From positions 1,417 to 65,416 of the forward strand of contig JAVCCC010000044.1 in assembly GCA_030765785.1 (NCBI GenBank): DNA of 64,000 bases, in the 5' to 3' direction. The notes beneath the pieces are model-generated. The model saw only the letters and a list, made by a program, of their open reading frames with translations. It ran no database searches and was not told the DNA's origin. This document shows, one piece after another, positions 3,044 to 42,556 of this stretch (the first letter of the stretch is position 1; the number at the start of each line of letters is the position of its first letter). The position numbers and the translations under genes were made by a program. Origin of the DNA: Candidatus Aceula lacicola (GTDB lineage: Bacteria > Omnitrophota > Gorgyraeia > Zapsychrales > Aceulaceae).

Positions 3044-3133
3044 GATACCTCTTTCCTTAAATGAGCACATAGCTTGCGCAACTAAAAGGAGCGCCAAGTT
3101 ATGCGTGCGAATTTATCCCGCACCCAAAGGGTG
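3044..3133 (-). promoter_or_regulatory. Copy 1 of the conserved structured 5'-UTR RNA motif (upstream of the pyruvate:ferredoxin oxidoreductase gene)
   Basis: RNA sense reads CGGGAUAAAUUCGCAC - hairpin (GCAUAACUUGG ... CAAGCUAUG) - GUGCUCAUUUAAGGAAAGAGG - AUG. Confidence 0.6.
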
Positions 3134-3149
3134 TCGAGATTTCCACCTT

Positions 3150-13310: not shown

Positions 13311-13420
13311 TAACCTCCTTTAAATGAGCACCTGACTTATGCAGCCTCTTGTCTTTAAAGGCAAACATCAAGTCAGCCTGTACGAATTAATCCAGTGAGC
13401 TGCGCGTCCTAGCGCAACGA
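13311..13420 (-). promoter_or_regulatory. Copy 2 of the conserved structured 5'-UTR RNA motif (upstream of rubredoxin)
   Basis: RNA sense reads CUGGAUUAAUUCGUAC - hairpin (CUGACUUGAUG ... CAUAAGUCAGG) - GUGCUCAUUUAAAGGAGG - AUG. Confidence 0.6.
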
Positions 13421-13603
13421 ATCTGGAATTCCTTATCTAAAACTTTAAACATATTACCACAAAGAACTTTCCAAAACATACTTTTTATATCTAGGAATGA
13501 TTATTATATAGAAACTATTCCTGTTGTCAAGAAGAAAATAATAGATGCAATTGCCCGGATTGCCCGGCCGGGCAACTCTTACCTTCTCCGTCGATCCAAA
13601 CAA

Positions 13604-13658: not shown

Positions 13659-16600
13659 TTAATGTGCGTAACTTAATTGGAGGTTTTGGTCATCTTCTTC
13701 GACTGCGCCAAGAAACGCAGGAAGATTAACAACCGGTGTGACGTTGATAATAACAGGATAAAGTCCGTTAATCTGAATATTTCTAAAATTAGCATTATTT
13801 AAATTAAATTCAAAACCATCTCCTTTAGATTGAATATCCATATCCATTGTATCAGCTCCGAGATCGATACCCCCAAGTTCTTCTTTCGAATCTTCAAACG
13901 AAATCTCAAGCTGCTTTTCCATCTGACCCTCAACCTCATCTAAGATATCATCAGCCTTTTCACTCGATAAATATAACCACCGATAAACTTGGTTCTCACC
14001 CTCACCGTCTTTTTCTACCGGCGGCAAACGCTCTTCTTCAATAGGAATTGTTTCAAACCCTTGACCCCCTAATGCATCTTCGGCCGCCTGATCTCCAGCT
14101 TCAGCAAAAAATATTGGCTTTTCACTAGAATCTTGTTTTGCCACTTCAATAAGCCGAGCAAGAAGCAAATTTGAAAAACCTTTCTTTTTGTGAAATTCCG
14201 CAACTTCGATAGCATCAAGATGATAAACAAGCTCCATTGTTGTAGCATCTTTCTTAAAAGAAATTTTTCCGTCAGAAGTTACCGGACTTTTAATCTTCCG
14301 GAAAGTTTGCATTGCAACGATTTCTCCATCCTTACCTTCTAACCGAACAACTACCATTCTATAATCATTTAAATTGTCAACAGGTTTATCCCAATAAAAA
14401 TCCTCAACTTGATCAACATTTTTGTCCGCCTCTTTTTTACCTTCTGCTTCACGTTTTCTCGTAGCCACCCACTCGTCCCTAGCTTTCTTTCTTTTTTCAA
14501 GTGCCTGCTCTCTTTCTTCATCATTAGAATTCTCATCAAGATATCCAACTTCTTGAACATAAACCTTTTGCCCTCGAAATTCCATAAAACCATCGATTAT
14601 GAGAGCAGAAGAAATTATGCCACCTTTTGACGCTAAAGCCTCATCAAGCTTTAATTTAATTTCACCGCGCTCTTTGCCGCTCACAACTCTAAAATCGCTC
14701 GGATCTAAAAGCTGCATTTGCTCCATTTTCGTATCATAAATATAAGGCGTCCCATTATAACGAAAATGAATCAAATTTACTCCTTTATTGATAATAACAA
14801 CCTTTTTTTCCTCATTAGGTTTGCCAGTAAAAACAAGACCATCATCTGCAACAATTTTGCTTAAATTAACTCTAGAAGCAATTTCTCTAACCGTAGTTAT
14901 TTTCGAACTCCACTGTTTAAGAAATCTTTTTTGATTTTCAAAGTTAACCGTCATCGTCCGTTGATTAGGCTTTAGTCCCAAAACTTCTTGCGCATAAAAA
15001 ATAGCTTTGGCATAGTTAGCTTCTTCTTCCGATTTTGGTTCTAATATAATAGAAAATTCCTGACCATCAAAAACTTTATCAAAATGCTCTAAAAACAAAG
15101 CAAAAGCCATTTTCCAAGAATGACTTTGTTGTTGACTTAAATCAACAAAAAAATCCTGAATATGAACGACGTTCACTTTCTCACCCTTAGTTTGATCATC
15201 TATTAAATAGGAAACAGCTCCGGCATCATCCGCAAAGGCGACGTCAACTTCATAATGAACAGCAAATAAAACATCTCCATTCTCTGAGTATTCACCAAAA
15301 GGATTACGCACCACAAAAAGATATTCATTCTCAGCGAGAATTCTTGGCCAGGTAGTCTCAAATTTCTCTTCAAAAGTAAGTTTATTGAAAATAGAGGATA
15401 AAATCTCTCGGACCTCTTTTCGGTTCGCTCTTGAATCTAACACCATACCTTCACGTTGTTCGCCTAAATCATCGACAAAAAATACATTAAAAAGTTTTTG
15501 ATTAGAGATATCATGATAAGATTTACGCCCTTTGATAATCAGATTAGCTACAAGAAGCAAGATATCCGTAGACAATTTTTCATCACCATTTTCTTCAATT
15601 TCTCCTGCAAGAAGATTCAAGAATGCAAACATAGAACCAATTGGGTTCCTAAGATCATGGATTATATCTTTTCGCATTAACTTTGATATGTTTAAATCAG
15701 AAACAAATCCAAGATCAGAAATAAAAAGCCCCATATCTGAAATTGTTGCCATAAGATCAACTAGCCTATCCTTTGAAAATTCTTCTTTTACAACTTTAGC
15801 TATTTCAAGAATTAACTTATCTCTTTCTACAATAAGATTCGGACTTGATTCTAATTTAATCTGCTCTTGAATCTTTGCGAAATCTCTTAAATCTTTTAAG
15901 AATAAATTAAACCCAGTTCTTCTTTTTTGTGTATCAGAAAAAAAACTCTTTATAATCAAATACCCCATCATAGCTCCAAACTTGTTAAATTCTCCTTTCT
16001 GAAACACATATTCATCACCAGATCCATTCTCCTCAATATCTTTTCCTGAATTAAGTTCAATATTTAATTTCAAATTTTCAGTATAAAAAAGAACATATTC
16101 TCTAAACAATTTTTCAAAAAGCGAACAATTATTTTTATTTAAAAAAACGGTGCTTTGAATCTCAAGAGATGGTCCAAAAGCCTTGAGAGTCTTCATAGCA
16201 TAAGTATTGCCTTTCCCATCGTTATTATTTATCACACCAATTCCGGAGATACTAGGCAAGAAATCCTGATGAACTAACCCTTGATCGGCAGAAAAATGGT
16301 GAGGAATATAAACTTTATCTAACAAAACTTGATTAGTGTCAATAATCTGGTCTTCTGTTATTGCTTTACCCCCTTTTTCTGGATTATAAAGGTCTCGCAT
16401 AGCTGACAATTTAGAATCTATCTGAAATCCTATAAAAATTTTCTCTCCCGTCCTCTTATCAAAAACAAATTGAAGCTGATATCCAATAATATCTCCAGAA
16501 ACTCCTCCAAAATACTGACTTGCTACATCCATATGATTGATAATATTTCCATTTTGATCTCGGCTAAAAAATACTGTCTCACCTGTTTCTCTATTAACAA

Positions 16601-19355
16601 GCGCCTTGACGCCTAGAATTCTATGATAACGAGGGTTAAAATCTATGCCTTCAATACTAAATATGCGAGCTCGCAAAACAGGATTAAGCCCCGCAAGCGG
16701 TATAACAGAATACATCTCATCAAGGATTTTACCTGTTAAAATAGGAGAAACGCCATCAATAACATCAACTTCTAAATCTCCAGAAACATCTCTTATTTTT
16801 ATTTCTTGCTCTTGTTTCTTTTTAACTCGAACTAATATCGCTATTGCAGACTCTTGACCCTCTGCGACAATCTCATGTTCTAAGAGATTAAGATCCATTC
16901 CTAATCGAATCATCTCGCCGAATAAACCTTTAATAATCTGAATTTTTTCTTGCGCAGCTTCATCTTTCAGAAAACTAAAAACAGCAAAAAGGTTGCCTCC
17001 CGCGTTCACATTGCTATATGCTGAAATAAATTGATTCAAATAAGAGGCCACTTCTTCTTCAGGGTTTATACAATTAATTACGGAAATAACCTTATCGGCG
17101 CCAATCGGATTATTTTCTTCATCTAAAAATCTTCCAGCAAATCTCGTACGATTAAAAACAACATCTGCTCCTGCAAGAGGATCGTCCACAAAAATCTCAA
17201 TATTCTTTTTTTCGGAATCCACAAAAAATTCTTTCAAAAATATACTCGTCATTGGACCAATGCCAAAAATTTTCATTTTTTGGTCTTTTCCTAAAAAAAC
17301 TGTCGACCAAATAGCACTTTGAATCGTTTGAAGATACTTGTTAATACCTTGATAAAAATTATTAAAAAATGTCTTATCAATACTACTAAGAGGAGAAGCC
17401 GTTTGTTTTTTTGTTAACTCATAAACCGTTTTTCCTATTTTTCCCCATTCGAAATGAGTACCGTGTAAATTAGTTCCTAAAAAATCATAGCTGTCTTCAT
17501 CGGATAAAATAGTCTTTTTAATATCAAACTCTTCCATCAAAGCTGGAATATATTTACCCTCTCTTGAGCTAGTCTTAATAATAATCTTAGCTCCTTTTTT
17601 AAACTTTTTCATAACATCAAAATTCTTAATTACGGCAACGAGAGATTCCACTGCTATAGAATTAGGATTTACCAAAAGAATATAGTCTAAAGAATTATCG
17701 GGCAAATAGAGAAGAATATCTGCTTCAGCACGAGCAACAACTAAATTCTCTAAACCTTGCGTTTGCGCAGGAAGTCGTCTTTTTTCAAACTCTTCAGCAT
17801 TGTCTAAATAAAGTCTTGGAGCTCTTTCTTTGTCAATAGCGTATTGATCTGTTGTAATGGACACAATATCTTTCTTTTGATTCAATTCCGCAATCGCCCT
17901 AACAGCTTCAGCATCTCCTCCTCCAAACTCTAACAAAAGCTTTTTACCATTTTTCTTGCTTTCATTAACTAAATTATAAACTTTCCCAATTTCTTCCTTT
18001 GTATTATCAAAAGATAATAAGACATACTCAAGCTTGTCTCGAGAAAAAATCCATCCTTTATCTCTTGCCGCCTCAATTTCACTCCTTGTATTTTCATAAA
18101 TCTTTAAAACATCTCGAACGTACAATGCCATTTTTTCATTCAATTCTTCAGAAATCTTGTTAGCTCTTCCAATAAGCAAGGAAGAATTCTTTAGCGTGCT
18201 TGAAACATGTCGAAGCTTAACAGGAGATGCAGATCCGGTCGCTTGCCTGATATCATTAGTTGGAACAATGGCTTTCTGTGTATTGCCAAGAAAACTCATC
18301 CCTCCTGAAAAATATTTGCGGGGAACATTGCGTTTTTCATACTGATCATATTCAACTTTAACAAAATCACATACACCTTTTTTAAATGCATCAAGATATT
18401 GATTATAAATCTTTTCTCGGATTTCCTTATCCTCAACATCCACACCAGAAATCTTTGCTTGGTTGCTATATTTTTGATTTAAAATCGAACTTTTAAGAGT
18501 ATTCTTAAACCAAGTTGCCAAAATCAAAGAATTATAAATTTGACGAAGGCTTGCAAAATTTTTGCCGCTGTTCACTTCTTTTTCAATTTGAGGCAATACA
18601 ATCTCACGGACAATCTGAGAAGATATATTATTAACTTCTTTTGTTTCCTGAGCGCTATTTATTTTTGTTCCTATTTTTTGATTATCCAAATTATTTTCAA
18701 GGGACAAATAATCTTCTTCAAGCATAACTTTTAAATGACTTTTAACAACAAATGCACGAGGTCCATTTTCATAAACAACCGCTTTTTCTGGAACAATCCA
18801 TACCTTGTTAAAAGTATTAACAGGAATTTGCGTAGTCCCATATTTCTCAAAGGCTTGCTTGTAAATTCGATCCCAAAATCGCTTTCCAAGCTCATCTTCC
18901 GGATAAATAAGCGAAGCTGTAATTTGCTTTAGAATATAATCTTGCGCTAAAAGATCACGCCCCATTTCTGTCTGGCTAAATGCATCTGGAATGATTCGAT
19001 CTTCTTCATACGGAGAAAGATTCACCCAAAGATCATTTTCTGGAATAGTCAGTGATGCCAAGAAATATTTAATAAGTTTTTCGCTTTCCTTCTCAAAGTC
19101 TGCATCACTTAAAGATGTGTCCCCCACATCAACAATAAAATCAAGCTCAAAAGGATTCTCAGGATTAACCCGAACACCTCGAAGCAAAACAGGCGCAAAG
19201 CTCGGAGTAAGCGTAACCATTTCTCCAGGTACAGGCAAAAAACTTAAACTCTGCGCAAAAGCAGCTGAAGGCATAATCATATTGACCAAGAATGCAAAAA
19301 TTACAAACCAGCTTAAGAGATTACAATAAGGTTTTTGTATAAACTTTCTACTCAT
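13659..19355 (-). CDS. Giant (1898 aa) secreted or membrane-anchored multidomain protein of unknown function
   Basis: A single uninterrupted ORF. N-terminal signal peptide MSRKFIQKPYCNLLSWFVIFAFLVNMIMPSAAFA|Q. Around aa 470-560 there is a class I SAM-methyltransferase-like segment (LLLEFGGGDAEAV ... EADILLYLPDNSLDYILLVNP). A second GxGxxG segment follows (KIFGIGPMT). Around aa 1150 there is an isolated histidine-kinase H-box-like segment (IIHDLRNPIGSMFAFLNLL) with no ATPase domain. A GNAT motif-A-like segment (HKKKGFSNLLLARLIEVA) lies near the C-terminus. It has its own promoter region and terminators. Confidence 0.8.
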   Translation of the reverse strand: MSRKFIQKPYCNLLSWFVIFAFLVNMIMPSAAFAQSLSFLPVPGEMVTLTPSFAPVLLRGVRVNPENPFELDFIVDVGDTSLSDADFEKESEKLIKYFLASLTIPENDLWVNLSPYEEDRIIPDAFSQTEMGRDLLAQDYILKQITASLIYPEDELGKRFWDRIYKQAFEKYGTTQIPVNTFNKVWIVPEKAVVYENGPRAFVVKSHLKVMLEEDYLSLENNLDNQKIGTKINSAQETKEVNNISSQIVREIVLPQIEKEVNSGKNFASLRQIYNSLILATWFKNTLKSSILNQKYSNQAKISGVDVEDKEIREKIYNQYLDAFKKGVCDFVKVEYDQYEKRNVPRKYFSGGMSFLGNTQKAIVPTNDIRQATGSASPVKLRHVSSTLKNSSLLIGRANKISEELNEKMALYVRDVLKIYENTRSEIEAARDKGWIFSRDKLEYVLLSFDNTKEEIGKVYNLVNESKKNGKKLLLEFGGGDAEAVRAIAELNQKKDIVSITTDQYAIDKERAPRLYLDNAEEFEKRRLPAQTQGLENLVVARAEADILLYLPDNSLDYILLVNPNSIAVESLVAVIKNFDVMKKFKKGAKIIIKTSSREGKYIPALMEEFDIKKTILSDEDSYDFLGTNLHGTHFEWGKIGKTVYELTKKQTASPLSSIDKTFFNNFYQGINKYLQTIQSAIWSTVFLGKDQKMKIFGIGPMTSIFLKEFFVDSEKKNIEIFVDDPLAGADVVFNRTRFAGRFLDEENNPIGADKVISVINCINPEEEVASYLNQFISAYSNVNAGGNLFAVFSFLKDEAAQEKIQIIKGLFGEMIRLGMDLNLLEHEIVAEGQESAIAILVRVKKKQEQEIKIRDVSGDLEVDVIDGVSPILTGKILDEMYSVIPLAGLNPVLRARIFSIEGIDFNPRYHRILGVKALVNRETGETVFFSRDQNGNIINHMDVASQYFGGVSGDIIGYQLQFVFDKRTGEKIFIGFQIDSKLSAMRDLYNPEKGGKAITEDQIIDTNQVLLDKVYIPHHFSADQGLVHQDFLPSISGIGVINNNDGKGNTYAMKTLKAFGPSLEIQSTVFLNKNNCSLFEKLFREYVLFYTENLKLNIELNSGKDIEENGSGDEYVFQKGEFNKFGAMMGYLIIKSFFSDTQKRRTGFNLFLKDLRDFAKIQEQIKLESSPNLIVERDKLILEIAKVVKEEFSKDRLVDLMATISDMGLFISDLGFVSDLNISKLMRKDIIHDLRNPIGSMFAFLNLLAGEIEENGDEKLSTDILLLVANLIIKGRKSYHDISNQKLFNVFFVDDLGEQREGMVLDSRANRKEVREILSSIFNKLTFEEKFETTWPRILAENEYLFVVRNPFGEYSENGDVLFAVHYEVDVAFADDAGAVSYLIDDQTKGEKVNVVHIQDFFVDLSQQQSHSWKMAFALFLEHFDKVFDGQEFSIILEPKSEEEANYAKAIFYAQEVLGLKPNQRTMTVNFENQKRFLKQWSSKITTVREIASRVNLSKIVADDGLVFTGKPNEEKKVVIINKGVNLIHFRYNGTPYIYDTKMEQMQLLDPSDFRVVSGKERGEIKLKLDEALASKGGIISSALIIDGFMEFRGQKVYVQEVGYLDENSNDEEREQALEKRKKARDEWVATRKREAEGKKEADKNVDQVEDFYWDKPVDNLNDYRMVVVRLEGKDGEIVAMQTFRKIKSPVTSDGKISFKKDATTMELVYHLDAIEVAEFHKKKGFSNLLLARLIEVAKQDSSEKPIFFAEAGDQAAEDALGGQGFETIPIEEERLPPVEKDGEGENQVYRWLYLSSEKADDILDEVEGQMEKQLEISFEDSKEELGGIDLGADTMDMDIQSKGDGFEFNLNNANFRNIQINGLYPVIINVTPVVNLPAFLGAVEEDDQNLQLSYAH

Positions 19356-19540: not shown

Positions 19541-19551
19541 ATTACCTTTTG

Positions 19552-19743
19552 CTATTTAATCCCTATTTTTTTTAAAATCATCATCATCAGGCACCAATTG
19601 GTAAAAGCAGACTGAAGCAAATTAGCTCCAATAAACGCCGTAAACCAAAGCCAGCGTATATCAACCCAAACAGCTAGCGCAAGGCTAAGCAAAATCATAA
19701 AACCTGCAATCCCTCTTAGAATTCTTTCCATTAAAACCTCCAA
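19552..19743 (-). CDS. DUF2892 (YgaP C-terminal-like) small membrane protein
   Basis: 63 aa with two transmembrane segments and GANLLQSAFTNWC, typical of DUF2892. Confidence 0.55.
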   Translation of the reverse strand: MEVLMERILRGIAGFMILLSLALAVWVDIRWLWFTAFIGANLLQSAFTNWCLMMMILKKIGIK

Positions 19744-19748
19744 TCCTT

Positions 19749-21032
19749 TTAAAATGAATAGCGAATGCGCGTATAAATATTCTTATTTCGTTTCATCTGG
19801 CCAAATTCTGTTGTGTCGTCCTCGCCCCAAGGTAAATTCGCACCAAATGTTACTTTCCACTGATCGCTAATATCATAGCTGACAGATGACCTAACGTATC
19901 CATCATCATCTGATGGCGAATAAAATGTAAACAACGAAACCATTACCGTCTGATTCTTAAATAATTTTGTAATCCGGTTGGTTATTAAATGTCGATATTC
20001 ATCCCACCTATAATCATTAGGCAAAAGATTATCGCGATACTCGCTATAATCAAGTCTTTGCTCATACATATACTGAAATCCCACTTTTAAATCATTTCCC
20101 AAGTCTTTAGTATATCCTGCCATCGTTTTAAAAAATGAATTCTCAACTGTTCTAATATTTCCGTCACTATCATCTCGTGAATTAATATAGCCAAATTCAA
20201 TATTTCCAATACCACTTGCAAAGGGCCCTCTCAAACTTGCTCCATAAACATCTACCGGCTCATAATAAAGCTGCTTTAAAGCTTCATTTTTATAGCTCCT
20301 TGGATTCTTGTCAAAACCATGAAAGAAATAAAATGCGCCTTCATTGCTACCAAAATTACGATAAAACCTTAGAGCATATTCATTATTGCTCATCTGAAAT
20401 GGAGGCTTAATAATATCTCGATCTGAATTAACGCCTGTAATGCCTCCTTGAAAGCTATCAAAAAACGACAGGCGATCACCCTTAGCAATTGTGTTTGGTG
20501 TAAAATAAGGAATCACGATAAAATCAATGTTTGCAAACTTTGGATACAAAGATGCTTTAATCGCATCAGATGGTTTCTTTAAATACTCATCATCACGCCC
20601 AGTAAAAAAAGATACATAATCTTTTGAAAACATATCATTAATAAAAAGATAGTCTCCTGTCCCCCACGTCAAAACTTGACGGCCAATCTTTAAATCCATA
20701 AAATCAACAGGAGTCAAAGACAAGTTAAGTTCACGAAGCTCAAAATCTGTTTTACCGCTATAATACTCATCAACAGTAAAATCCCCTCTAAAGCTAAGCG
20801 CCCCACCTTTTTGAGCTAAATAATTATCACCTGAAAAATAATGATTAGCCCTTAGCTGTAGTCGTTGTTCAAAAAGATTATAATTATCTCTTTTTGTATC
20901 ATCATCGCTAAGCTTTACCCCATAATCTGTTTCAATGAATCCATGAATTTGAGGCCAAGCCGCAAAACTTGGTTGTACTAAAATAAAAATAAAAAATAAA
21001 ATAAAAAATATTCTTTTCATTATTGAATCCAT
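19749..21032 (-). CDS. Outer-membrane beta-barrel protein (putative partner of the MMPL/LolA-like system)
   Basis: 427 aa. Signal peptide (FILVQPSFA|AW). Alternating amphipathic strands. C-terminal ...RIRYSF with a terminal Phe. Confidence 0.6.
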   Translation of the reverse strand: MDSIMKRIFFILFFIFILVQPSFAAWPQIHGFIETDYGVKLSDDDTKRDNYNLFEQRLQLRANHYFSGDNYLAQKGGALSFRGDFTVDEYYSGKTDFELRELNLSLTPVDFMDLKIGRQVLTWGTGDYLFINDMFSKDYVSFFTGRDDEYLKKPSDAIKASLYPKFANIDFIVIPYFTPNTIAKGDRLSFFDSFQGGITGVNSDRDIIKPPFQMSNNEYALRFYRNFGSNEGAFYFFHGFDKNPRSYKNEALKQLYYEPVDVYGASLRGPFASGIGNIEFGYINSRDDSDGNIRTVENSFFKTMAGYTKDLGNDLKVGFQYMYEQRLDYSEYRDNLLPNDYRWDEYRHLITNRITKLFKNQTVMVSLFTFYSPSDDDGYVRSSVSYDISDQWKVTFGANLPWGEDDTTEFGQMKRNKNIYTRIRYSF

Positions 21033-35629: not shown

Positions 35630-35720
35630 CTCCCCCTCCTTTAAATGAGCAGTTAAGTTATGGAGCCGCAGGCGACATAACTTAAAACTGCGAATTTATC
35701 CCGAATGTGCAGCGTGCCGA
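35630..35720 (-). promoter_or_regulatory. Copy 3 of a conserved structured 5'-UTR RNA motif (upstream of CBS-hox)
   Basis: RNA sense reads CGGGAUAAAUUCGCAG - hairpin (UUAAGUUAUG ... CAUAACUUAA) - CUGCUCAUUUAAAGGAGG - AUG. Shares both boxes with the copies at 3044-3133 and 13311-13420. Confidence 0.6.
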
Positions 35721-35744
35721 AATTAATACTATTCGATAATTTCA

Positions 35745-35773
35745 CCTGCATGAAGATTATAAGTTTAAACAAA
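35745..35773 (-). promoter_or_regulatory. Consensus sigma-70 promoter of the CBS-hox operon (TTGACA, 17-nt spacer, TATAAT)
   Basis: The reverse complement reads TTGACAcagtttttgtttaaactTATAAT. The implied transcription start lies just upstream of motif copy 3. Confidence 0.65.
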
Positions 35774-35825
35774 AACTGTGTCAATTGATATATATTTAAA
35801 GGAAAGATAATAAAATACGAACTTA

Positions 35826-36861: not shown

Positions 36862-37482
36862 CTATCTCTGGATATCACAAAAAAGTGACAAAAATTCAAT
36901 TGTAAAATCAATATCACGCACAACAATATTCTTCGGAACTACAATAGACATCGGACTAAAATTAACAATCCCTTTTAGGCCGGACAAAACAACAATATCT
37001 GCCACTTCCTGGCTAAATTCTTTAGGTACCGCAATGATGCCAATTTCGATTTTTGTTCTCTTAATAATCTTGGGTGCTTTATCAATCGAATAAATATTGA
37101 CGTCATTGATTTTCTTTCCAATTTTCTTTAAATCTTTGTCAAATGCAGCAATGATCTTAATGCGACCCTTATGAAAACCAGGATATTTTAAAATAGCAGA
37201 ACCTAAATTTCCAACTCCAAAAAGCGCTGCATATACAGAATCCTGCTGAAGCACAAATCCTTCTAAAATATCTCTAAGCTCAATCGTTTTATAACCAATA
37301 CGAGGTGTCCCTACTTTTCCAAATTTAGAAATATCTTTTCTAATTTGCACATCGCTAAACCCTGTCATTTTTGCAAGCTCGCCTGACGACACCAAATACC
37401 TGTTAGACTTAACCAATCCTTCAAGGGTGCGGATATAAAGAAGTGCACGTTCAATTGTTTTTTTTGATATTTTTTTAACCAT
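36862..37482 (-). CDS. rex: Redox-sensing transcriptional repressor Rex
   Basis: 206 aa. N-terminal winged helix and a Rossmann fold (FGVGNLGSAIL). Confidence 0.85.
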   Translation of the reverse strand: MVKKISKKTIERALLYIRTLEGLVKSNRYLVSSGELAKMTGFSDVQIRKDISKFGKVGTPRIGYKTIELRDILEGFVLQQDSVYAALFGVGNLGSAILKYPGFHKGRIKIIAAFDKDLKKIGKKINDVNIYSIDKAPKIIKRTKIEIGIIAVPKEFSQEVADIVVLSGLKGIVNFSPMSIVVPKNIVVRDIDFTIEFLSLFCDIQR

Positions 37483-40543: not shown

Positions 40544-42556
40544 TTAAAACTCAAAACTAACACCTGAATAAAAGCTTCGCCCTTCAGCTGGGTAAAATCC
40601 TACGGCATTGCTTCCAAAAGAATAAACACCATACGCATTGTACATTCGACCTAATATATTTTTGACACTAAACCAAAATTTTATATTTTTATACTGATAA
40701 TCTAATTTAAAATTAAACGTAATATACGAATTCAATTTGGGCTGAACGTTAGCTTGATCACTAATGGCAAAACATTTGTCCACATAATTCATAGAAAATG
40801 TTGTGCTTAAATCATCAAGCGGATACACAGAAATGCCAGCTGAAACTTTATTTCGAGGCACAAATGGAACCTTATTCCCTGAATACGATCCTCCTTTTAA
40901 AAAGGCATCCTGATAAGTCCAGTTAACATATAGCTCTAAGAAATCTTCAAAAAACTTTGCCTTGCTGTTCACCTCAAAACCATAATGTCTTGTTTGAGGA
41001 TCGTAATTCGAATTTTTATATGTAATCGGATCATAATAAATTTCATTATCAATGTCCATCAAAAATATATTAGCATCTGCAAAAAACCCGGGCAAAGAGA
41101 CATCGCGAACACCAAGTTCATAGTTATGCGCCACTTGATGTTTTAAATTCGTATTGAGTCCCCCTCCGCTACCCCAAAAACCAGTATAAACGTTTTGATA
41201 ATATTCATCTGTTACTGGCAATCGGAATGACCTTGAATAATCAAAAAAAAGCTGAGAATCTTCATGATACTTATATCCTAATCCAAAACTAAAAGAACCA
41301 TCATTAATAGATTTTGAATCTTTGTTAACAGACACAGCCGTTTGATCAAAATCATACTCAGCCCATGTTCCTCGACCACCAAAACTAATTAAGAGCTTAT
41401 CTCTAATTTTAATATTTTCTAAAACATAAACGCCAATTGTTTGTTTTGTAATATCAACAAAATCTTGGGCTGAACGTTGATTTCCGCTTCGAACCTTATC
41501 TTTTGCACAAAAATAATCAAGCCCTATCGTTGTATCGCTAAAAATATCTTGAGTCATCATAGATTTTATCTGAAGCTTTGGGCGCAATTCAAAAGACTCA
41601 ATTTGATGAAGCGTTTCGTATCGTCCCCAGCTCGAAACAGACAATGACTTATTATCTCTTTTTCGATAAGAAAATGCCGAAGAAAATTCCATATCACTAT
41701 CTTTAATTGTAAAGCTTATTTTTGGCTCTACATTCACAAAATAATCAGATGTCCATCCTTTATCATCTGTATGCATTGTTCCTCTTCGCCCAACAGCATC
41801 AATATCTGTCGCAAAAAGAGCGCCAGGCATTCCATAGCGATCTCGATGATAACCCGTTGAGCATTCTAAAGAAAATCGATCGGTTAAGGAAAAAGATAAA
41901 TTAGAAAGATAATTATTAGACCAATAATCATTATTAGCTCGATAACCAGAAGATTGTTGATGAGAATAATCAAAGAAATAATCAATCTGCTTCGCTGTCC
42001 CGCTAGCGGATAAAAACGATTTCATATATTGATAACTGCCAATCTCTGTACCAATACGAAACGGCAATTCTGTCGCTTGATGCCCTTTTTTTGTAACAAT
42101 ATTAATAACACCCGCAGAAGCATTATCCCCATACAATACCGTCGAAGCTCCTTTTAAAATCTCAATATGATCAATAGAATCAAGACCAATCTGTCCCCAA
42201 TCCACCCCAGAAAGATCAACCTGATTCGTTCTTCGACCATCAATCAAAACAAGCACATTTGTTTTACTCGTTTCCCCAGAGCCACGAATGTCAATATTTA
42301 CTCCCTTAGGATTTCCTAAATAATCAGCAACAAAAACACCACTCTGCATTCCAATGATTTCCGGCACAGATGTAGCCGTTGATTGCTCGATATCTTCTCT
42401 CGTAATAATGGAAACGCCTTGCGTCACATCCGATATGTTTAAACTATTTCGACTCGCCAAAACATTAATCTTTCCTAAATCAAAATCATTGCTTCCCAGG
42501 CAAATATTTGGAATTAAAAAAAATGTTAATAATAAAAAACTTATTCTTTCTTTCAT
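40544..42556 (-). CDS. TonB-dependent outer-membrane receptor (BtuB-like, judging by the upstream cobalamin riboswitch)
   Basis: 670 aa. Signal peptide, plug domain (DVTQGVSIITREDIE), beta-barrel, C-terminal ...GVSFEF. Confidence 0.85.
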   Translation of the reverse strand: MKERISFLLLTFFLIPNICLGSNDFDLGKINVLASRNSLNISDVTQGVSIITREDIEQSTATSVPEIIGMQSGVFVADYLGNPKGVNIDIRGSGETSKTNVLVLIDGRRTNQVDLSGVDWGQIGLDSIDHIEILKGASTVLYGDNASAGVINIVTKKGHQATELPFRIGTEIGSYQYMKSFLSASGTAKQIDYFFDYSHQQSSGYRANNDYWSNNYLSNLSFSLTDRFSLECSTGYHRDRYGMPGALFATDIDAVGRRGTMHTDDKGWTSDYFVNVEPKISFTIKDSDMEFSSAFSYRKRDNKSLSVSSWGRYETLHQIESFELRPKLQIKSMMTQDIFSDTTIGLDYFCAKDKVRSGNQRSAQDFVDITKQTIGVYVLENIKIRDKLLISFGGRGTWAEYDFDQTAVSVNKDSKSINDGSFSFGLGYKYHEDSQLFFDYSRSFRLPVTDEYYQNVYTGFWGSGGGLNTNLKHQVAHNYELGVRDVSLPGFFADANIFLMDIDNEIYYDPITYKNSNYDPQTRHYGFEVNSKAKFFEDFLELYVNWTYQDAFLKGGSYSGNKVPFVPRNKVSAGISVYPLDDLSTTFSMNYVDKCFAISDQANVQPKLNSYITFNFKLDYQYKNIKFWFSVKNILGRMYNAYGVYSFGSNAVGFYPAEGRSFYSGVSFEF

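Follow-up and report, generated by a model that had tools for sequence, protein, structure and literature searches.

Gene boundaries in the candidate phylum Omnitrophota carry an apparently undescribed two-hairpin repeat

[quoted passage not shown] The known secondary roles of REP sequences include protecting the 3′ ends of mRNA and, where a stop codon is near, influencing translation. Omnitrophota is an uncultivated phylum with small genomes, and to our knowledge its gene-expression signals are essentially unstudied. Here we describe a structured element that occurs three times in a 64,000-nucleotide stretch of Candidatus Aceula lacicola DNA, analyzed as a whole and called the window below (GenBank assembly GCA_030765785.1, contig JAVCCC010000044.1, positions 1,417 to 65,416 of the forward strand). 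The element belongs to an apparently undescribed family of two-hairpin repeats at gene boundaries across Omnitrophota, and it may best be likened to a structured repeat of the REP or IS200 type.

An initial annotation of the window had reported three minus-strand copies of an element with shared sequence boxes, located before the genes for pyruvate:ferredoxin oxidoreductase (PFOR; copy 1) and rubredoxin (copy 2) and before the CBS-hox operon (copy 3). Searches with the boxes and with a covariance model recovered these copies. Perfect matches to the 5′ box GGATWAATTCGYA exist in the window at 3106-3118, 13381-13393, and 35689-35701 and nowhere else, each of them minus-strand, and the 3′ box TGCTCATTTAARG matches only at 3053-3067, 13316-13330, and 35637-35651. 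When the whole window was scanned with filters off, a covariance model (R1) built from 114 homologues returned the three copies with the scores listed in Table 1, and the next-best site scored 13.5 bits. The three-copy observation is real and far beyond chance. A box-like sequence at 19550-19562 was considered as a fourth copy and dismissed as a chance match; it lies inside a small open reading frame (ORF), and the filters-off scan found only three copies. The sites first reported were right, but the element extends further at its 5′ side than was recognized, because a complete upstream hairpin (hairpin A) had been missed. The copy 3 element is identical in a contig (L120; L numbers denote the loci fetched for comparison) that is 99% identical.

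The hairpins between the boxes of the three copies (37, 38, and 50 nt) differ in sequence and keep their pairing. The P2 stems read GCAG/CUGC, GCAC/GUGC, and GUAC/GUGC, the inner stems covary as well, and the hairpin A pairings are AUUUC/GGGAU (copy 3), AUCUC/GGGAU (copy 1), and UCCAG/CUGGA (copy 2). Copy 2 has the variant 5′ box GGATTAATTCGTA. Copy 3 lies in the 5′ untranslated region (UTR) of the CBS-hoxFUYH operon and copy 2 in that of the rubredoxin/flavodiiron operon (Shine-Dalgarno [SD] sequence at 13319-13314, ATG at 13308-13306). For these two copies, the claim that the element sits between promoter and ribosome-binding site (RBS) holds, since perfect promoters lie upstream of both; the one before copy 3 had been described correctly as TTGACA-17-TATAAT but misplaced at 35745-35773. 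Copy 1 differs. It starts 9 nt past the stop codon of the phosphoenolpyruvate carboxykinase (PEPCK) gene (3152-3150) and precedes the PFOR ATG (3040-3038), and a promoter scan found no credible promoter of its own, the best candidate lying inside the copy and matching at only 9 of 12 positions. Copy 1 is therefore intercistronic and not part of a primary 5′ UTR. The identities of PFOR and rubredoxin were confirmed from the translations, and those of the flavodiiron protein, the CBS protein, HoxF, HoxU, HoxY, HoxH, HypF, HypD, and HypE by Pfam; the 149-amino-acid ORF previously called HoxW had no Pfam match.

Across the family, the unit is about 85 to 140 nt long and consists of two adjacent hairpins, A and B, that abut without a linker. 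An alignment of 114 cores (A2) gave a consensus fold of 12 pairs, 10 of which are doubly compensated; at one of these positions, for instance, 62 copies have A-U, 38 have G-C, and 11 have C-G. The stem covariation claimed from the three window copies is thus present both there and family-wide. Hairpin A is closed by AUCCC/GGGAU and is otherwise variable. Its basal pair covaries, with G accompanying ATCCC 49 times and A accompanying ATCCT in 20 of 20 instances. From base to tip, hairpin B comprises P1 (UAAAU/AUUUA), a 2x2 UC/UC internal loop, P2 (GCNC/GNGC), a 1- to 2-nt bulge, a stem with CUUAYG/CRUAAG, commonly another UC/UC loop, and a tip that varies and carries an extra small hairpin in one subfamily. 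The UC/UC module is frequent in hairpin A also. The boxes pair with each other, as seen from variant copies, in which AAAUU...CAUUU becomes AAGUU...CACUU, UUAAU...CAUUAA, or UCAAU...CAUUGA. Most of the conserved nucleotides lie in base pairs.

Watson-Crick pairs make up nearly the whole of the stems; when G.U pairs are disallowed in folding, single mismatches account for only about 1% of hairpin B pairs. Such stems leave the hairpins able to fold on either strand. In sense-oriented copies, G.U mismatches in hairpin B (9) are about as common as A.C mismatches (6), which is not what a purely strand-specific RNA constraint would give. A weak RNA-level signal was seen when G.U pairs were counted on the gene-sense strand and on its complement: 42 versus 26 and 10 versus 6 in the two orientations, or 52 versus 32 pooled (P of about 0.04 by estimate). 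The UC/UC loops are constantly on the same strand of the element, the complement having tandem G.A mismatches. They thus mark one strand in the manner of the asymmetric features of single-strand DNA transposase substrates.

We also observed a second core variant, GGGATAAGTTC(R)GNC...GNCCTCACTTA, which is always inverted, lies just upstream of a sense copy, and has hairpin A in common with it. The UAA of this variant is the stop codon of the upstream gene, and the composite fills the spacer from stop codon to start codon. In L017 (assembly UBA1562), both the nusG-rplK and the rpoB-rpoC spacers are built in this way, as inverted variant copy, shared hairpin A, and sense copy, and are filled entirely from the stop codon (UAA-GUGAGG...) through the start codon.

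The size of the family was gauged by scanning a collection with one genome per species for the pattern GGATWAATTCG-N25-55-GCTCATTTAA, which matched at least 116 stretches. True copies occupy at least 110 loci from at least 83 assemblies, nearly all labeled Candidatus Omnitrophota or Omnitrophica; among the matches listed, 18 loci are labeled Planctomycetia, Planctomycetales, or uncultured bacterium. Six pattern matches (Moraxella, Lachnospiraceae, Saprospiraceae, Patescibacteria, Thermoproteales, and Mariniphaga) were not confirmed by R1 and were taken as chance. R1 added about 30 copies in the fetched loci that fall outside the strict pattern. The many further copies in related genomes stand before all kinds of genes and not specifically before redox genes, as the regulon of the initial annotation would imply. 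The estimated density in the fetched loci is about 1 copy per 20 to 25 kb, the same as in the window; the number of copies per genome is estimated at tens to more than 100. The G+C content of the copies ranges from 33 to 58%. The best named relatives of the window PEPCK are in Omnitrophota, which likewise assigns the window to this phylum.

The element did not match any described family, in agreement with the view that it is not a known riboswitch or leader. At the gathering score, Rfam 15 had no match on the element, and its sole match in the window was a cobalamin riboswitch elsewhere. With the threshold relaxed to an E value of ≤10, copies 1 and 3 still had no Rfam match, and the L017 composite gave hairpin noise alone. 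A literature search found no paper tying Omnitrophota to such a motif, and the box sequences appeared in no relevant text. Viral contigs gave one weak match (24.9 bits), which was taken as chance.

Placement of the copies relative to genes was strongly biased. Among the 114 aligned copies, 74 (about 65%) are start-side, 16 (about 15%) are stop-side, and 24 are placed otherwise. Start-side copies have the TTTAA end of hairpin B set directly against the SD or the ATG of a same-strand gene. Where an SD is present, the start codon follows behind it, 9 to 16 nt downstream of the element; in 16 copies without an SD, including those before rplK, infA, and rplB, the ATG overlaps the last A of the element. 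Stop-side copies are antisense, and their TTAAATGAG end, read in gene sense, supplies or abuts the TAA or TGA of the upstream gene. Both orientations occur in a single genome (assembly JAHIYJ01, with L009 and L040 antisense and L031 sense). The remaining copies include some that are followed by canonical terminators, some beside convergent tRNA genes, and some in 3′ UTRs. On the hairpin A side, between 0 and about 200 nt separate the element from the upstream stop codon; tight placement is therefore limited to the TTTAA end, and a flush-stop reading for hairpin A was rejected. Pairs of copies bracket rplM-rpsI and rplL with their TTTAA ends toward the cistron (L022, 5878-6993; L036, 3035-3591). 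The 10-nt end boxes of such bracketing copies are mutually complementary in the mRNA.

Several further arrangements were seen. In L051 (1924-2088), two full copies occur in direct tandem, the TTTAAG of the first running into the ATCCC of the second. Transfer RNA genes on the opposite strand adjoin copies in L013 and L083 (whole loci), L035 (6721-6785), and L105 (430-497), and the L013 and L083 copies lie within short repeated tRNA-flanking units. Unrelated hairpin repeats of the form CACCCGGMCTTAWTTGAGAGGCCGGT ... GCACTTACTGTGCA were seen directly before the SD at ribosomal-protein junctions of L077 (6860-7170 and 7580-7650), and several boundary-hairpin families may thus coexist in the phylum. 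In the window itself (1-64000), all ORFs of gene-like length and context are on the minus strand, a very strong gene-strand bias that bears on how the orientation bias of the repeat is read.

The genes next to the element are diverse. Downstream genes of 66 sampled copies belong to 98 Pfam families, none of them represented more than twice, and include those for IF-1, L24, L2, L11, S2, S11, acyl carrier protein (ACP), GAPDH, MetK, DnaB, QueA, and fumarase. Upstream genes of 92 copies belong to 131 Pfam families, the only recurrent one being the FabG-type reductase of the fabG-acpP junction. So wide a spread of neighbor families argues that the copies do not define a regulon, and the three window genes share a redox theme only by the accident of which genes this 64 kb happens to contain.

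Copies resemble each other more within genomes than between them. Identity within and between genomes was 0.68 and 0.59 for the variable part of hairpin B (P = 3e-4) and 0.68 and 0.54 for hairpin A (P = 3e-11). Among within-genome pairs, 15 of 46 are at least 85% identical in one hairpin, compared with about 1% of between-genome pairs, and assembly JACRLT01 has three near-identical copies on three contigs. Since some pairs are alike only in hairpin A and others only in hairpin B, the copies are mosaic. Identical stem starts also precede unrelated genes of different genomes.

Occupancy of orthologous sites was labile. The nearest relative with acs-rex-hypA-hypB-CBS-hoxF synteny (L117; CBS protein 74% identical) has the same TTGACA-17-TATAAT promoter and AAGGAGG-ATG, but its CBS leader is just 30 nt long and lacks the element. 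Similarly, L123 encodes a PEPCK that is 77% identical and has a PFOR orthologue downstream, and the AT-rich 146-nt spacer between them lacks the element. At these empty sites, the boundary pentanucleotide TTTAA has the counterpart TTTTAA before PFOR (L123) and none before the CBS gene (L117). Occupancy of ribosomal-protein junctions differs between L092 and L077. The fabG-acpP junction is occupied in 5 or 6 species, with compensatory and G.U differences among the copies.

Table 1. Coordinates of the element copies, their parts, and neighboring features (window positions unless an L locus is named)
Feature	Coordinates	Strand	Evidence or remarks
Copy 3, whole element (hairpin A + hairpin B + terminal A)	35641..35723	-	Sequence; 78.0 bits
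Copy 3, hairpin A	35698..35723	-	AUUUC 35723-35719 with GGGAU 35702-35698; small GCA/UGC stem inside
Copy 3, hairpin B	35642..35698	-	Centroid fold, family consensus pairs, P1 covariation in variant copies
Copy 3, P1	UAAAU 35698-35694 with AUUUA 35646-35642	-	
Copy 3, UC/UC loop	35693-35692 and 35648-35647	-	
Copy 3, P2	GCAG 35691-35688 with CUGC 35652-35649	-	
Copy 3, inner stem	AAGUUAUG/CAUAACUU	-	
SD AGGAGG abutting copy 3	35635..35640	-	ATG at 35629-35627
Sigma-70-type promoter TTGACA-17-TATAAT, upstream of copy 3	35756..35784	-	12/12 matches
Copy 1, whole element	3057..3140	-	69.1 bits; hairpin A 3140-3115, hairpin B 3115-3058
Copy 2, whole element	13320..13427	-	49.1 bits; hairpin A 13427-13391, hairpin B 13390-13321
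Sigma-70-type promoter TTGACA-16-TATAAT, upstream of copy 2	13503..13530	-	12/12 matches
Second-variant composites	L017 445-700 and 6510-6715		Also in L007, L012, L084, L085, L094, L098
Cobalamin riboswitch RF00174	42861..42999	-	62.5 bits
TonB-dependent receptor ORF	40544..42556		Plug + beta-barrel
1898-amino-acid ORF	13659..19355	-	N-terminal signal-like segment
Rex-type redox repressor gene	36862..37482	-	Put_DNA-bind_N + CoA_binding
Small ORF	19570..19730	-	About 53 codons, hydrophobic product

The explanation that we favor, with a probability of roughly 0.55, sees in the element a dispersed repeat, structured and intergenic, that is multiplied or homogenized as DNA inside genomes, is co-transcribed with its neighbors, and acts in mRNA at most as a generic boundary hairpin. 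The within-genome similarity suggests that the family spreads or homogenizes inside genomes as DNA. Its architecture would suit mobilization of the HUH type, as judged by likeness to REP/RAYT and IS200/IS605 systems: two different end hairpins, a common asymmetric TC/TC mismatch, no terminal inverted repeats or target duplication, and a boundary pentanucleotide base-paired to an internal complement. Once co-transcribed, the repeat would give the mRNA a rigid, almost purely Watson-Crick double hairpin ending 0 to 1 nt before the RBS. The effect on expression of PFOR, rubredoxin, and hox genes would then be generic, such as end protection or marking of a processing site between cistrons, with no sensing of a ligand or redox state. 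Several results weigh against this explanation. In a weak test, tblastn with a single IS200 TnpA query gave no match in 0.92 Mb of loci, which is less than 1% of the genomes concerned, and the Pfam survey of 66 downstream and 92 upstream neighbors revealed no recurrent mobile-element family. Target-site duplications were not found, the 5′ flanks being heterogeneous (TAG, TAT, AAG, GAG, and others) and not repeating the 3′ flank. Terminal inverted repeats are absent from the common form, whose 5′ (AG)ATCCC is unrelated to the 3′ GCTCATTTAA; an inverted partner lies upstream in only about 7 of 121 copies, as in L017. About 25 nt of the boxes are exact phylum-wide, which is unusual for a REP or MITE family, although the pattern used in the search accounts for part of it. 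Of the sense-oriented copies, about 90% have their end precisely at an SD or ATG, the junction in both empty-site comparisons is the 5′ edge of a pre-existing SD, and ribosomal-protein, IF-1, and ACP genes appear, by our own identification and estimate, to be several-fold over-represented downstream. Together, these three points suggest that a specific function of the RNA has been selected and that insertion was not simply neutral. The orthologous fabG-acpP copies, moreover, kept their pairing through compensatory and G.U changes. Much of this evidence would fit the main rival, a dedicated cis-acting RNA module of mRNA boundaries, a possibility that we entertain only tentatively. A phylum-conserved factor, such as an endonuclease (RNase III-like or not), a protein that binds RNA, or the ribosome itself, would read the helices and UC/UC loops and cut or remodel the RNA at the base of hairpin B, yielding mRNAs that start at the SD or AUG (leaderless) and upstream fragments that end in a protective hairpin. 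Duplication would be secondary, and copies would be kept for raising the expression of strongly expressed cistrons. Consistent with such a module are the 3′ end flush with the SD, or overlapping the AUG at -1 in the SD-less copies, because a helix 1 to 2 nt from the AUG would be hard to square with ordinary 30S binding unless it was removed. The filled nusG-rplK and rpoB-rpoC spacers of L017, the two cistron-facing copies around rplL and rplM-rpsI, the G.U excess on the gene-sense strand in both orientations, the pairing maintained in place at fabG-acpP, the apparent enrichment of translation and highly expressed genes, and the SD-edge junctions point the same way, and a factor that reads helices would see both orientations, since the stems are the same on either strand. 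However, close relatives have the same operons, promoter, and SD without the element, junction occupancy is sporadic, subfamily sequences are common to unrelated loci and within genomes, and G.U content is very low for a selected RNA. Nor was any in silico effect on RBS accessibility seen or a candidate factor identified. The repeat and RNA-module explanations are compatible, since a mobile module may have been domesticated. In one combined version, which we regard as improbable though worth stating, the element would be a mobile, self-contained cistron-boundary module in which a dedicated nuclease, or the RNA unaided, cuts at the base of hairpin B, dividing the polycistronic transcript into mRNAs whose 5′ end is the SD or a leaderless AUG and hairpin-capped upstream pieces, and in which P1 also steers a transposase of single-stranded DNA toward positions beside start and stop codons. 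In that event, the gene-expression architecture of Omnitrophota would be partly written by a domesticated repeat.

The remaining explanations fare poorly, with one or more direct tests against each. The initial annotation proposed a redox or anaerobic-energy regulon in which a riboswitch-like or protein-controlled leader, responding to a ligand or redox cue, governs ribosome access through an anti-SD loop. All three window targets are indeed redox or energy genes, the 3′ side of hairpin B often carries CUCC, copy 3 has a Rex gene two genes upstream, and L015 has Rex, a copy of the element, and a HoxF-like gene. Yet the 98 downstream families are mostly housekeeping; identical elements stand before SD-less genes, in antisense (about one-sixth of copies), in 3′ UTRs, and beside tRNA genes; and the orthologous hox and PFOR leaders lack the element. 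The predicted unpaired probability of the RBS was the same with native (0.488) and shuffled (0.473) upstream sequence (P = 0.34), which gives no sign of an anti-SD switch. In addition, the mostly paired conserved nucleotides leave only the 2x2 loops as a possible pocket, and the density of copies far exceeds that of any metabolite riboswitch. We therefore consider a redox leader highly unlikely. Only marginally better is the case for a bidirectional intrinsic terminator or attenuator, in which a GC-clamped hairpin between the A-tract AUAAAU and the U-tract AUUUA would impose a partial stop between cistrons. On both strands, P1 does set an A-tract opposite a U-tract around a stem with a GC clamp, and the element does lie between co-directional genes, but only three U residues follow the stem, and a terminator scan called none at the three copies. 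Canonical terminators with long U-tracts exist in these genomes, sometimes directly after the element (L022 and L069), and termination would be harmful inside essential operons (rpoB-rpoC and ribosomal-protein) and right before RBSs, where the element is found. A small self-cleaving ribozyme that trims leaders to SD-proximal or leaderless mRNAs would account for the many copies, the conserved boxes with covarying helices, and the flush 3′ boundary at SD or AUG. There is little room for it, as no ribozyme family matched even at an E value of ≤10, the sequence family works in both orientations, and, with almost all conserved nucleotides in Watson-Crick pairs, there is no conserved junction or pseudoknot core. 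We give equally little credence to a double-stranded DNA site, be it a promoter or a sequence bound by a regulator or a nucleoid protein. The 5′ box contains the -10-like TAAATT, and TCGACA-16-TAAATT inside copy 1 matches at 9 of 12 positions; against this, no -35 is conserved at a fixed distance family-wide, the -10-like hexamer is lost in the GGATTAAT variant, perfect canonical promoters lie upstream of copies 2 and 3, and a duplex site would not require covarying hairpins. A programmed frameshift at UUUAAAU in antisense copies was rejected because the zero frame stops inside the heptamer, and tRNA-like/T-loop, GNRA-receptor, DnaA-box, and CIRCE-like box readings did not fit the consensus by eye.

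Other features of the window were recorded in passing. The Rex-type repressor gene lies directly upstream of hypA-hypB and the CBS-hox operon; the Rex-hypA-hypB-CBS-hox order also occurs in L117, and Rex is near the HoxF-like gene in L015. No Rex operator was obvious by eye in the hox promoter. The next long ORF after the cobalamin riboswitch, 304 nt downstream, is that of the TonB-dependent receptor. In the 1898-amino-acid ORF, which ends about 230 nt upstream of copy 2, no domains were obvious when it was read; Omnitrophota are known for very long proteins. Between this ORF and the gene at 19749-21032 is the small ORF, which is followed by a GC-rich hairpin (GGGGCGACTTGAGAAATCAAGTCGCCCC).

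The redox hypothesis is thus replaced by an undescribed, abundant, and strongly covarying element of a poorly known phylum. The family may represent mobile, structured DNA of unusual age and spread, tolerated at the most sensitive positions of streamlined genomes, or it may be a general mRNA-boundary device. In practical terms, the covariance model is ready for use in annotating Omnitrophota genomes, and the element can serve as a phylum marker. The case also cautions against reading repeated leaders in one window as a regulon.

Among known systems, the element resembles REP/BIME sequences and REPINs in being a high-copy intergenic imperfect palindrome that is transcribed within operons, occurs in both orientations, and forms within-genome families. 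As in REP/BIME sequences, conserved mismatches mark one strand, and inverted doublets occasionally surround a spacer (the L017 composite). It differs in that the unit is two different hairpins over 85 to 140 nt rather than one 20- to 40-nt palindrome, the GTAG/CGTC head is not general (CGTC occurs only in some hairpin A subfamilies), the boxes are conserved phylum-wide, most copies abut start codons and not operon ends, and the tblastn search of 0.92 Mb with the IS200 TnpA query gave no RAYT match. With IS200/IS605 elements and PATEs, their derivatives without a transposase, it has in common the lack of terminal inverted repeats and target duplication, end hairpins that differ from each other, here both carrying TC/TC mismatches, and a strong orientation bias. 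The boundary TTTAA pairs and covaries with the internal UAAAU, which may parallel guide-directed recognition of cleavage sites. In IS608, however, the left hairpin lies about 19 nt inside the element, whereas hairpin A is at the very end; TTTAA is missing from the CBS empty site (the PFOR one having TTTTAA), and no tnpA was detected in the loci searched. Proteobacterial MITEs of the ERIC and Correia type are likewise structured repeats of about 100 to 150 nt in transcribed intergenic regions, present or absent at orthologous sites, and form mRNA hairpins, which in their case affect processing and stability, but the terminal inverted repeats and TA duplications that they carry are missing from the common form here, which is phylum-wide, whereas they do not extend beyond a family or genus. 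RNase III hairpins (T7 early mRNAs and the rplL-rpoB spacer) and 5′ stabilizers (ompA and ermC) are also two-turn hairpins with internal loops, intercistronic or 5′ of an RBS, and define mRNA ends, as may be proposed here by analogy; they are single and locus-specific and lack shared sequence boxes. Riboswitches and other Rfam leaders resemble the element in their position between promoter and SD and in conserved boxes with covarying stems, and differ from it in that the element has no coherent regulon, both orientations, paired conserved nucleotides, and no Rfam match. The R″/R′ boxes (RYYYAAC/GTTRRRY) of integron attC sites are absent, and the genes on either side belong to the core set and lie in conserved operons (rpoB-rpoC and ribosomal-protein). 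Set against all of these systems, the phylum-wide conservation of the boxes, the two-hairpin unit, and the placement beside start codons are the unusual features of the family.

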